This document shows, in pieces, positions 411 through 56,993 of a stretch of DNA of 64,000 bases (its first letter is position 1; every line of letters starts with the position of its first letter). The notes beneath the pieces were generated by a model. The model made no database searches, was not told the origin of the DNA, and saw only the letters and a program-made list of their open reading frames with translations. A program made the position numbers and the translations under genes. This DNA comes from Eledone cirrhosa (taxonomy: Eukaryota), in the NCBI GenBank assembly GCA_964016885.1, contig OZ024759.1:37076001-37140000 (forward strand). The letters run 5' to 3'.

Positions 411-1762
411 ATTTGTCTGCTCTGTGTGTGTGTGTGTGTGGCAGTAGAAGTAGTGGTGGTGGTGAAGTTCTAGAATTAGGGTTAAGTTGGATGAAGTGGA
501 GTTAGAATTGATTCTGAAATGCATCGGTTGCAATATAGGGTCAGCATTTTCATAGGATCAGGGACCTATGGAGAGTTTGTGGAGGGTGAGGAAGAGAGTG
601 GGGAGGAGGAGGAGGGCTAGAAATGTCTAATAAGGAATATGAATAAATAAAAAACTAAAGAAAAAGAAAATTGAAACCGACGGAAAAAAGACAAAAAATA
701 AAATCAGAAAGAAAATTTAAAACAAGATAAATAAGATAAGTAAATAAAAAGGAACAATAAAAAAGTGGTGATGGTGGGGTGGCGTACGTTGGGGTGTGGT
801 GGTGATGGAGGTGTGGGTGGTGACGCTGTGTGGAGTGGGGGTGAATGCAGCATCAAAAATCGATAGAGATAGAGAAATATTGTGAAGAGCAGAGGTTTCA
901 AGAGATGAGATATGTAGAGACTGAGGGGAATAGAAACATAGGTAGAGAGAGAGAGAGAGAGAGAGAGAGAGAGAGAGAAAGAGAGAAGGGGATAGAGAGA
1001 TTGGTAGAGAGAGGGAGAGAGAAAAAAAAGGAAAGTAAAATAAAGAGAGAAATAGAAGAGAAAAGGAAAGAGATAAAGAGAGTATTGGAAATTAGAAATA
1101 GTTGGAGGTGAAGGTGAAAAAAAACTCTGAAGAAATATGATCCAGAAGTGAATTAATTAATAGAAGTAAACAATATGGCGGTGGTATTACCCTGCTCTGG
1201 GCGGCCATTGTTATCAATTATCTGCCCTTGCAACAGATGACAGTTCAATGAATTTTACATTATATTTTATTTATTATACACCCTCAATATTTACACACAG
1301 TTTTAGCTTTATTTATATATGTATATGTATATGCGCGTTTTTGTCTATATCACAGTATACACACACACACACACACACACACACACACACACACACACAC
1401 ACACACACACACGTGTGTGTGTGTATATATGTAAACAAGAAGAACCAATATAGGGTGAAAAGCAGAACATTTTTGCTTAAACTTGAATCTGTACGAATAG
1501 CAAATATTTGGTCTACGGGTTTATATATATATATAAAATTGCTTTGTCTGACGAACGAATGGGACGTTTCTTGTATTCGTGTTATTCGGGAAACCTCTGG
1601 TAATGAGGTAATTATATTGTATTGTTTATTATACATTAAATTTAGCTCTGTAACTTACATAGAGCACTCTTCCCTCCTATGACTTTTTCAATTTTCAACG
1701 GAAACTTCAATACATATATATATATATATATATATATATATATAATATATATATATATATAT

Positions 1763-2046
1763 AAAACAAAGAGGGTGTGGTAAGATACCAGGTGGACCAC
1801 AACGCACCAGAGTACTCAATACTTAGGGTAGCTTAGTTTAGATCTAGCTGTTCGAAACGGCCAGAGCTCAGCCGTCTCTCTCTCTCTCTCTCTCTCTCTC
1901 TCTCTCTCTCTATATATATATATATATATATATATATATATATATATATATATATATATATATATATATATGAACATGTATGACCCCGACGGCTATTTCT
2001 GGACGCGTTATGGTCCATCTGGTTCCTTACCAAAACTCCTTCGTTA
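1763..2046. mobile_element. MITE-like element with ~50-bp imperfect terminal inverted repeats, between (TA)n tracts
   Basis: ggtaagataccaggtggaccacaacgc (left) pairs with gcgttatggtccatctggttccttacc (right). The same terminus recurs at ~6397-6520, 15055-15150(-) and 18015-18080(-). Confidence 0.55.
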
Positions 2047-3133
2047 TATATATATATAACTATATATAACTATATATATATATATATATATTTGCTCTAC
2101 GGTTCTTATATATTTGATATATATTTATCCTTATCGAGCCCTCTTTGGATTTTAGTCTTCAAATTTATTATTATTACTATATATATATATATATATATAT
2201 ATATATATATATATATATATATATATATATATATATATATATATATGGCTTCTTTGAACGTGGCATTCAAAAGGTTACCTTGTGTGTGAATGTGTTTAAA
2301 CTTGATTCAAAATGATCACTTTATCAATCAGTAAGATGGAAATCGATACAATATATTCGTGTCTGAAATAAGTAATTGTGGGGGTGGGGGTCGATATTAT
2401 CAACTAAACCCCAAATATGCTGCACCAGTATGGCCACAGTACACTGATTAAAAACCGTTAAAAAACTGAAATGATAACTATACCCCAAACTCGAACTCTC
2501 ACACACACACACACACACACACACACACACACACACACACACACACACACACACACACACACACACACACACACATACTCACATACACACCATCGTGCAT
2601 AAGCACAATCATATCTCTCTCCCTTCTATCTCTCTTTCTCTCTCCCTTTCTCTCTCTTGCCCTTCGATATATATATATATATATTTATATATATATATTT
2701 ATATATATATATATTTATATATATATATATATATATATATATATATATATATATATATATATATTTATATTTAATACATTAACAGAGAAAGCTTTAAGCA
2801 ATAATCCGACCGGCTTCCGTCTCACTCAACAAACATTAGGATATACCTTAGTATAATCCCAATTTTACGTTTGGGGTGCTAACTATACGTATTTTGCGGA
2901 TAGCCAGTTGTATTATTTTATATGAGACATAATTAAAATACATCTCTCTTTCATGTATGTATATATGTATGTATATATATATATATATATATATATATAT
3001 ATACATAGCTTTGAAGAATTAGCTTTTAATGAATTCCCTTTTCTATCAACCAATGACCTCCACCTATCCCACTCCCTACCCTCTCCTACCACTTGAAGAG
3101 ACCTATAAATACCATACTTATTTTTTGATACCC

Positions 3134-3184
3134 AGATTCCTGATGATTTCTAAAGAATAAAACAGTTCTAGTCCTGTAGAATCT
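3134..3184 (+). ncRNA. Hammerhead motif with mutated core (GAAA>AAAA)
   Basis: agattc-CTGATGA-tttc taaa gaat-AAAA-cag ttctagtc ctGTA-gaatct. Stems I and III are intact. Paralog at 44434. Confidence 0.55.
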
Positions 3185-4530
3185 CATCTATATTAAAACT
3201 TATATATATATATATATGTATATGTATATATGTATATGTATGTATATGTATATATATGTATATATATATGTATATATATATATGCATATATATGTATATA
3301 TATACGTATATATACATATGTATATATATGTATATATACATATATATATATAAATACATATATATACACACACACATATCGATACAAATATAGACAGAGG
3401 CTCGTGCTAACAGTAACAACATCAATTAACGGTGTTTATCTAACAGTGAAATATCGACAAATCCGTGTTGATATCATTTTATCTCACTGTAAGACCATCA
3501 AAACTAAAATGGCGCATTTTCCAAGTTAAATTTACCAAATCGCTTCTGGACAACTTATTGATTTGATATGCAAACATGTCTTGTAGTCTTCTTTCGCTGT
3601 CGTTATTAATGGCTGTAGTTTGAGGGCACAATTGGATTACTGGGTGTGTATCGCTCTATAATTTACACACATTTGTTTATGTGTGTGTGTGTGTGTGTTG
3701 TGTGTATATGTCTCTCTTTGTTTGTGCCTAAATTGTGTTTGCGTGTGCGTTGATGTGTATATGTGTGTCGGTACAGAAATGAATATATGCCTTGTGCTTG
3801 CGTATACACGCACACACATATTATATATGTGGAAATTATATATTTATATATATACATACACACACACACATATATATATATATGTGTGTGTGTGTGTGTG
3901 TGTGTGTGTGTCTATGTATGTGTGTGTTTGTGTATATATATGTCTGTGTGTGTGTTGTGTTTGTATGTGTTTTGATGTGTATGTAAAGAAGTAAATACAT
4001 GCCTTGTGACTGCATATACACACTCACATATATATATATATATGTGTGTATGTATGTGTGTGTGTGTGTATGTTATATATGTGTTTGTTTGTCTGTGAGT
4101 TTCTGTATGTGTACACAAAGAATTGTGTGCCTACTTAGATATATGCAAACACAACACATACTATCTCTCTCTCTCTCTCTCTCTCTCTCTCTATATATAT
4201 ATATATATATATATATATATATATATATGTGTGTGTGTGTGTGTGTGTGTGTGTGTGTGTGTGTGTGTGTGTACGTATATATATATATATATATATTTGT
4301 AGGTGTGCTTTATCATAAAAACGTACATAAAGTCAAGCGTTAACTAAGTAAACGGCCAATACATAAGTAAAGCTTATTTATAGTGACTTCGAAGTCATTC
4401 AGAACATAAAAGCACGTAACAAAGTGTAGCAAAGTATTCTGTCAGATGCTCTACCGATTGTATTATGGTTAAATAACCAGGTTAAATTTGTTAACATAGA
4501 CACAATGCCATTAATTTGAAAAGAGGTGTT

Positions 4531-55180: not shown

Positions 55181-56417
55181 CACCCGTAACAAGCACCGTC
55201 AGTCGTAAGTTTTATTTACTTAAGTATTTATTAATTAAACTGCCAGGTAAAATTGCGTTATATATGCAATTAGTCAATTTAATTTATTAAATTCCTTAGA
55301 AATGGTGCAGTGTTCCATTTGACCGTTTATAAGGGAACTTAGTCGATGTTGGGACCCCCAAACAGGATTGAAACCACTCAACACAAACCCTTATACGTGT
55401 GTGTGTGTGTGTGTGTGTGTGTGTGTTTTGGCGTTTCCTTCAACTAACACACACTCATACACACACAATATGTGTGGACAGATGGTAAAACGATTCGGTA
55501 TAGCTGGGTAGACTAAATTGCTTCTGTCCAGAACAAGCTCACCATCACCAGCATCACCATCACCACTACCATCATCACCACCACCACCATCACCATCACC
55601 ACTACCATCATCACCATCATCATCTCATCAACATCGACACCTTAACCCACAGACTTTTTCATCACTGCCACCCGGATATTCATACATGTACGTACATGTA
55701 CACACACACACACATACATATATATATATATATATATATATATATATAAACACACACACACACACACACACACACAACACAGATGGTGTGGTCGTTAATG
55801 TCATGATTTGGGGGTTGTGAGATGTCACTGGGTGTGACCTGGGTCTTTGACACTGATGAAGTGATGGTGGTGGGAGTAGTAGGGAGTAGTGGGAAGAGGA
55901 TGTATATTTGCTCTTGTTGTTGTTGTTGTTTACCCCCCCCCCAGCCCTCGTCCTAATCAAAGACAGTCCAGACATGACTTCTTCACCTCATTCTAGGATA
56001 ACACAGAAATATGGGCATCTTAGACATGACTGTGTTGTTAAGGGTTTCACTTCACAACATAGGGGTCGGTATAGCTGTGTTTTTAGGGAGTCATTTACCT
56101 GCTATGTGGTTCTTGGCTCTGTTTTACTGCCTAGCATCGTGGGGCGGTGTCTTACATAGTCTCGGATTGTGAGTATAATTTGGAACACACACACACAGTA
56201 TCATGTGGCCTTCTTTTTCCAGTTCAGTCTGAGTGATTTGAGCTTCTATTTCTAGCAAGTCAAGTGACCATCTACTGTCCGTCTTGAGTCCCCCTACTGA
56301 GCAGACAGAGGATTCTTGCACGTTCATGTTAATCGGGTTCTTAACCAGGTGGGTGGACTGCACCTGTTTACCAAAACATGTCATATATTTTGGCACGGGT
56401 AGGTTGTGTGGCACACC

Positions 56418-56603
56418 TCCAAAATATCTCTCCCTTCACCCACCTTCCTTACCCACCCCCAAAATATCTTTCCCTTCACCCACCTTCCTTACCCACCCCC
56501 AAAATATCTCTCCCTTCACCCACCTTCCTTACCCACCCCCAAAATATCTTTCCCTTCACCCACCTTCCTTACCCACCCCCAAAATATTTTTCCCTTCACC
56601 CAC
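56418..56603. repeat. 40-bp minisatellite, ~4.5 copies
   Basis: aaaatatctYtcccttcacccaccttccttacccaccccc at 56421, 56461, 56501, 56541, 56581. Confidence 0.95.
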
Positions 56604-56940
56604 CCCACTTTTTCTCATTAACCCCCGTCCTTCGCCGAACCAAACTGTCAACTCAGCATTTAAACCGGCCAGAATTCTCTAACCTCTTTCTGTTCAAACC
56701 AGCTGTAACTGGCCGCTCATACCTATGTTAAGGTATTGTTCTCAAAATATATAATATCAAAATCTTGTAGATTCAATGTTATGTGAGATATTATGTAAGA
56801 TAAAATGTTTACTGTGAAAATACAATAGTAAATATAGAGTAATGTAAATGTTAAAGGGTTAAAACCTCCTCATCACCATCACCACCAAGGGAGCCTTCCA
56901 AATAACATTGGCCCAGAAATGTTACATTTTAATCAATGTT

Positions 56941-56993
56941 TGCTGTCTGAGGAGATGACGATGTTTATCGTCATTGAAATATATATAACGGTG
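56941..56993 (+). ncRNA. Type I hammerhead ribozyme motif (minimal, Penelope/retrozyme-like), intact core
   Basis: tgctgt-CTGAGGA-gatgacgat(gttt)atcgtcatt-GAAA-tatatATA-acggtg. Stem I is 6 bp including G:U, stem II is 9 bp, stem III is short and palindromic, cleavage triplet AUA. Confidence 0.75.

Follow-up and report, generated by a model that had tools for sequence, protein, structure and literature searches.

What are the many small hammerhead ribozymes of this locus, and how did they come to lie beside its (TA)n tracts? The window, by which we mean the whole 64,000-nt stretch of Eledone cirrhosa contig OZ024759.1 (positions 37,076,001 to 37,140,000), consists of (TA)n for about 11% of its length. 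A first-pass annotation, made from the letters alone, placed about ten hammerhead motifs of several sequence families in short islands between these tracts and took them for non-autonomous elements, either solo repeats of Penelope-like elements (PLEs) or retrozyme-like units. We find that the window hammerheads are real and above chance. Six of their families continue, elsewhere in the genome, into open reading frames (ORFs) for a reverse transcriptase (RT) and a GIY-YIG endonuclease (EN) with the marks of the Hydra clade of PLEs. We suggest that most of the islands are very probably 3' end fragments of several PLE families, which likely reached (TA)n through target-primed reverse transcription with an early stop. 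Their hammerheads are predicted to cut.

Hammerhead motifs in the window and in a genome sample

Our type I descriptor takes CUGANGA, GAAA and UH in this order, plus stems I-III. By this descriptor there are four intact motifs in the window, with cores at 1548(+), 9935(+), 30694(-) and 56947(+). Forty dinucleotide shuffles of 150-nt tiles gave a mean of 0.05 motifs and a maximum of 1, and the reversed or complemented window gave none. Ten of the twelve sites named in the first-pass annotation are members of multi-copy hammerhead families, on the strand first given. The sites and related pieces are as follows.

1543..1607 (+): family D, type I hammerhead, intact; lies at the 3' end of a Hydra-type PLE, with (TA)n 111 nt downstream
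1745..1875 (no strand assigned): fold-back 3' end of family M, a half hammerhead; in full copies of the family the sequence is CUGAGAA or UUGAGAA
2005-2045, 6416-6487, 11556-11611, 15061-15144, 18016-18096: other pieces of family M
3134..3184 (+): family E hammerhead, G12A in the window copy; GAAA in 63 of 66 family matches, RT and EN upstream at two places
9929..10020 (+): intact type I hammerhead, family A; 61-nt stem II domain, palindromic stem III
15161..15212 (+): family F hammerhead with a family-wide U4A core (CAGAAGA, 31 of 31 matches)
15567..15656 (+): family G hammerhead with an intact core; its stem III palindrome is mutated, whereas family copies are palindromic
30416..30474 (+): SGC-order (non-circularly permuted) hammerhead candidate with intact core, at 30463(+); absent from the first-pass annotation
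30640..30699 (-): intact type I hammerhead, family B; ends 51 nt before (TA)21
30974..30996 (-): family K hammerhead, 3' half only, truncation having removed the 5' half; full motif in locus L284
40627..40677 (-): decayed hammerhead of a family related to B; stem II deletion, ORF link not found
44434..44480 (+): hammerhead of a family E subfamily, G5U in the window copy; multi-copy family
44840..44884 (+): candidate without support, reading GAAG where GAAA is expected; no family found
54527..54589 (-): SGC-order hammerhead candidate, G12C in the window copy; the motif at 54539(+) is its plus-strand artefact
56940..56994 (+): family C, type I hammerhead, intact; lies at the 3' end of a non-coding element of 1.25-1.4 kb that has a terminal direct repeat
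62994..63037 (-): family B tail alone, truncated downstream of the ribozyme; adjoins (TA)n

The first-pass annotation had called the cores at 9929, 30640, 56941 and 15569 intact, and so they are, with stem III broken at the last. The copies at 3134, 44434 and 40627 are indeed decayed, and the half motif at 30981-30992(-) belongs to family K, in which stem II of the complete ribozyme measures about 115 nt. The site at 1548 was thought degenerate and is intact by our descriptor. At 15162 the supposed mutation is the family's own sequence, so this copy is not decayed. Two sites are not supported: for the candidate at 44840 the 1.92 Mb of loci compared, which is less than a genome-wide search, contain no relative, and the motif at 54539 was read on the wrong strand, CUGANGA being missing on the plus strand in 10 of 12 family-pattern matches. 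Family M has C3/A8 in most full copies. At 61240-61690, two 3' tails from another hammerhead family, both cut off short of the ribozyme, form a near-perfect inverted repeat; by eye it resembles sequence in loci L094 and L091.

To the genome as a whole we applied a systematic sample of 79 evenly placed 10-kb stretches (790 kb; 80 placed, one absent) of the 2,996-Mb assembly. It holds 72 intact type I motifs in 27 stretches, against 0.5 in shuffles and none in reversed and complemented sequence. The resulting density is 91 per Mb (bootstrap 52-137). The window itself has 62 per Mb, and the sample bears out the conjecture that the window's density might hold genome-wide. Sixteen of the 72 sit in two tandem arrays, and counting each array once lowers the figure to 73 per Mb. 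Adding four families missed by the descriptor raises it to 98 motifs, or 124 per Mb; the family E pattern has nine matches. Weighted by chromosome class, the genome estimate is about 253,000 intact motifs (146,000-378,000).

The sample motifs fall into 16-18 sequence clusters, and stem III is perfectly palindromic in 44 of the 72. When motifs are chosen by core and palindrome only, 56 of 75 also have stem I, compared with 0.2 of 4.8 in shuffles. A (TA)n tract lies within 250 nt downstream of 49 of the 72 and upstream of 17 (background 13%), and motif counts track TA content (rho 0.64). An ORF is present within 2.5 kb upstream in only 7 of 61 evaluable sample motifs.

Coding elements behind the islands

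Genome searches were made with eight islands, and for each 40 candidates were scored out of hundreds to thousands of first-look candidates. Every island gave at least 40 genome matches, with best non-self copies of up to 90-99% identity, and the islands are thus not unique, as they had been described. The copies of a family all stop at the same 3' position, which adjoins (TA)n and lies 15-130 nt beyond the cleavage site, whereas their 5' ends are ragged. An inverted 5' arm is frequent, as seen in L039, L152, L180-186 and L284. There is no PLE protein match in the window nor in the 10 kb on each side, in line with the statement of the first-pass annotation that no Penelope ORF was nearby. Elsewhere in the genome, families B, D, E, F, G and K, which cover the window sites 1548, 3134/44434, 15162, 15569, 30640 and the half motif at 30981, continue upstream into RT and GIY-YIG ORFs. 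Coding PLEs with the same motifs are thus found for six families, and most of the islands would be the 5'-truncated ends of such autonomous elements.

The link is clearest in family B (30640), where EN lies 1.09-1.15 kb upstream at 11 distinct places, the pairs shown are 92-95% collinear and the linked RT has YRDD. An ORF lies within 2.5 kb in 19 of 77 family B copy hits, a figure that includes some loci that overlap and some that belong to other families. A reading of the 200 nt just before family B as a decayed endonuclease end was rejected, since the ORF stops 1.1 kb earlier. For family D (1548) a GIY-YIG ORF lies 1.2-1.35 kb upstream at four distinct places among 45 copy hits, three of them shown to be collinear (85-87%). 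In family F (15162) EN is about 960 nt upstream at three places (95-96.5% collinear). Family G (15569) has EN 1.28 kb upstream at two places (81% collinear), and family K (30981) is linked at two places, L284 and L198 being collinear with EN. The linked endonucleases of the six families are 34-50% identical to each other. Family links and (TA)n polarity agree with the first description of microsatellite-associated Penelope-like repeats. The words "non-autonomous or retrozyme-like" do not fit these six families, and a non-coding unit is shown for the 56941 family only.

The Hydra clade is defined by CxCX5C, CxxC/CxH and DKT, and it is reported to target (TA)n and carry hammerheads (PMC8557442). 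Its published octopus member, Hydra-1_Obim from Octopus bimaculoides, is inserted in (TA)n and has its hammerhead at base 2403 of 2507 (PMC8557442 supplement). Of the six linked endonucleases, five have CxCX5C, five have CxxC before E, and four have CxH after N; those missing a signature are mutated or truncated copies. The family F RT in L091, the one linked RT covering the motif, reads DKT in place of DKG, and so does a related RT in L153. By contrast, two non-Hydra control endonucleases are without CxCX5C and CxH, and the control RT in L239 has DKG. By eye, the RT resembles Hydra-1_Obim in the published alignment. At the N-terminal RWK motif, the copies examined are truncated before it or without match. 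An assignment of the ORFs to Nematis was rejected against the published Hydra definition.

The elements share with the clade described by Craig et al. (2021, PMC8557442) the C-terminal GIY-YIG endonuclease, the three signatures, (TA)n insertion, inverted 5' arms and a type I hammerhead that precedes the 3' end by about 100 nt. They differ from it as described there in comprising at least six distinct families with this spread of EN identity, in 3' untranslated regions of 1.0-1.35 kb, and in hammerheads that have either a U4A core or a stem II domain 60-115 nt long. By eye, none of the window's motifs is the hammerhead which that source gives for Hydra-1_Obim. The window families are further members of a published class, and we did not find these particular families in print. 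The first-pass annotation had allowed that motifs mapping to catalogued PLE termini would be real but not novel. This largely applies at the level of the clade, Hydra-1_Obim being catalogued. At L239:4594-6558 and L336:3582-5835 the PLE ORFs are of a different type, with DKG and a GIY-YIG match that passes the Pfam cut-off, which indicates more than one PLE clade in the genome.

Family C (56941) is a non-coding element with a terminal repeat, and the only window family so shown. Its longer copies run back into their own ribozyme and tail with periods of 1,241-1,416 nt, the longest open frame in three copies examined is 130 codons, and there is no PLE protein match at E<0.3. PLE ORFs beside its copies were rejected as its genes, because they belong to other families and are not collinear. 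Three longer copies (L247:1212, L253:1212 and L256:1194) start at most 2 nt from the ribozyme C3, without the 5' strand of stem I; transcription may begin at this point, which would leave the upstream ribozyme disabled. A 173-bp dispersed repeat (40 scored copies, 89-92% identity) immediately precedes the family C fragment, at 56690-56863. Genome matches of the query 56690-57045 came from this neighbouring repeat and were rejected as ribozyme copies. Outside the window, L094:281-3381 is a tandem array of 11 units of 310/311 bp, and L285:1615-5500 has 13 such units, preceded by a further one in inverted orientation. Every unit carries a type I hammerhead. The visible ends of both arrays adjoin (TA)n. 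Judged from their sequence, these arrays are retrozyme-like units with a PLE-type insertion signature. Both they and family C resemble the non-long-terminal-repeat retrozymes, which are described as non-coding type I hammerhead repeats tied to PLEs (PMC7229834; bioRxiv 10.64898/2026.07.22.740005). In contrast to the retrozymes of these sources, most window islands are not tandem, and the family C unit is 1.25-1.4 kb rather than 150-450 bp.

How would the islands have formed? From the PLE literature, a Hydra-type endonuclease would nick TA tracts, and RT would start near the RNA 3' end and usually fall off within a few hundred bases. Because of such early fall-off, the ribozyme would be the part most often left, in islands of 100-300 nt. 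In vitro, the RT of an anole PLE does start near the RNA 3' end (PMC11167929). Other traits of EN-containing PLEs are present, namely inverted 5' copies and, in family C, a partial tandem. Since copies with the full motif span the cleavage site, their RNA templates would have been either uncut there or ligated again after cutting. The most likely task of the ribozyme is to process tandem or read-through transcripts of the element, acting as a dimer via its palindromic stem III, and most solo copies probably have no activity. Family C and other non-coding units likely depend on the enzymes of coding PLEs.

Several observations weigh against this account or parts of it. The link of family E (3134, 44434) to RT and EN, found at two places, crosses microsatellite-filled gaps. 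Family A (9929) has no firm ORF link, with one suggestive place where EN is 2 kb upstream and insertions lie between, and for the 40627 family none was found. No intact full-length ORF was recovered for the linked elements, the ORFs being broken, and none of 10 Hydra-type ORF pieces reaches the Pfam cut-off (best GIY-YIG E 2.9e-4, RVT_1 E 0.012). Folding z-scores for 12 motifs run from -1.65 to +0.68, so that monomers fold no better than shuffles, and stems I and II are both in the centroid only for 30640 and 56940 among nine window motifs folded. PLE motifs are expected to act as dimers rather than monomers (PMC4209133). The anole ribozyme cleaved in vitro, yet was dispensable for insertion (PMC11167929), so that the role suggested here for the ribozyme is tentative. 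Separately from these points, in an Rfam scan of the window there was no hammerhead among the 150 of 500 matches listed, those being microsatellite matches to microRNA-type models. RF00163 against the genome gave 18 matches among 74 scored candidates, all from another family, and this is no measure of number.

Two other origins have to be considered. Chance matches in AT-rich, microsatellite-rich DNA would account for the candidate at 44840 and the plus-strand reading of 54539. As a general explanation we give chance next to no weight, in view of the approximately 140-fold excess over shuffles, the zero count in reversed and complemented DNA, the multi-copy families and the strand polarity; for ten of the twelve named sites it is already refuted. 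The islands could instead be, in the main, complete small non-autonomous retrozymes that move as circular RNAs. Family C, with its non-coding unit, its period of 1.24-1.42 kb and its lack of a PLE protein match, fits this idea, and so do the 310/311-bp arrays in L094 and L285, which contribute 16 of the 72 sample motifs. Against it, for six families of the window the islands are what truncation left of coding elements, with 5' ends that vary, and no window island has two same-strand ribozymes of one family. The 310-bp arrays are not in the window, and no window island is a non-coding tandem unit of 150-450 bp. We therefore consider it quite improbable that retrozymes make up most of the islands, and favor truncated PLE ends.

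A further alternative concerns function and not origin, and is compatible with the origin proposed above. The ribozymes may now be vestigial passengers, with PLEs moving without cleavage and the motif hitch-hiking near the RT start site. Family F has spread with a U4A core (95-98% identity), and this recent spread suggests that fast cleavage may not be needed. The C3/A8 core of family M, the genomic copies that span an uncut site and the catalytic mutants without effect on insertion in vitro (PMC11167929) point in the same direction. However, the core and stems I and III are kept across at least 16 sequence clusters, even though the linked endonucleases are so diverged, and such retention argues for long-term selection. 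On balance, we hold it to be unlikely, though deserving of real weight, that the ribozymes are vestigial. Of natural variants, the passages of PMC3088659 consulted mention U4C and U3-A8 and not U4A.

Motifs in the SGC order and other repeats of the window

In the 54539 family the plus-strand motif has (TA)n on the wrong side. On the minus strand, at 54538(-), the blocks come in the order site, GAAA, CUGAUGA; stem I has 7 bp and stem III has 4 bp. For this family we used anchored counts, since the MAFFT alignment slipped by one column. The match at 30416-30474(+) is the one SGC-order match with an intact core in the window, against none in 60 shuffles, and has a homologue in L285 (79% over 114 nt). 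Among pairing-free SGC matches, 34 of 44 pair well in stems I and III with varied stem sequences, compared with 0 of 5 in one shuffle. The block order is that of type SGC of Eckert et al. (2023, PMC10085705). Both 30463(+) and 54538(-) are like HRIMA-1 and its variants in having site, GAAA and CUGANGA in this order with stems I and III. They differ from them in a longer linker and in cleavage that is predicted only, and the published examples in that source are from metatranscriptomes and not from genomes of known organisms.

Inspection by eye shows this layout also at the end of the published Naiad_Ovul consensus, and at the end of the preceding record, which file order indicates to be Naiad_Obim. 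A literature search found no paper joining the SGC permutation to Naiads. Three results speak against the SGC motif or its link to Naiads. The usual stem II (10.x with 11.x) has 0-2 pairs in all 27 strict SGC matches and in both window copies. SGC copies are rare in the 790-kb sample, with none in the strict scan and two in the pairing-free scan. No Naiad ORF was found beside SGC copies in seven 10-kb loci, in a search using non-Naiad seeds only.

The window also contains other repeats. Three tandem copies of a 2,037-bp segment occupy 20330-26500 (repeated matches at 22148, 24185 and 26222), and a minisatellite with units of about 55 bp, read directly, lies at 33060-34340. A decayed LINE-like element at 35400-39300 has an Exo_endo_phos domain at 37386-37877 (E 1e-11) and is not a PLE. 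Two pieces of another repeat, at 57058-57290 and 59170-59800, are in opposite orientation, end at (TA)n and are also present in locus L021; no ribozyme was found in them.

Scale of the repertoire and its meaning

At about one intact-core hammerhead per 11 kb, the scale is above the published counts compared here. Those counts, obtained with other descriptors, are about 4,000 in the coelacanth and 9,000 in Xenopus (Cervera and de la Pena 2014, PMC4209133), over 6,000 in a coral, about 5,000 in a mussel and up to 120,000 in the axolotl, the largest (PMC7229834; bioRxiv 10.64898/2026.07.22.740005). The minimal PLE hammerheads of PMC4209133 are otherwise alike: they are mostly solo motifs from truncated PLEs, in many families per genome, with palindromic stem III and predicted dimer activity. 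Their numbers stand against about 250,000 estimated here with a different descriptor. We found no cephalopod hammerhead count in the literature, though such a count, or a report of the U4A core, may exist in work on small dimer-cleaving PLE hammerheads. In a 2026 repeat annotation of Octopus vulgaris, the words "hammerhead" and "ribozyme" are absent from the main text.

Taken together, we are slightly inclined to believe that E. cirrhosa has the largest hammerhead repertoire on record and also, at the ends of Naiad-type elements, an active SGC-type ribozyme (30416-30474). If true, the latter would be the first such ribozyme in an animal genome and would explain why Naiads have been described as lacking hammerheads. 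Provided that it cuts, the SGC-order motif would extend a fold known from metatranscriptomes into animal retroelements. The family-wide U4A core at 15162 would be a further natural variant. Together with the 115-nt stem II and the C3/A8 core, it belongs to a set of recently amplified natural variants that bear on what the PLE ribozyme is for. In addition, a repertoire of this scale opens two questions to study, namely whether host pre-mRNA is cut by copies within introns, and whether such copies are underrepresented on the sense strand.

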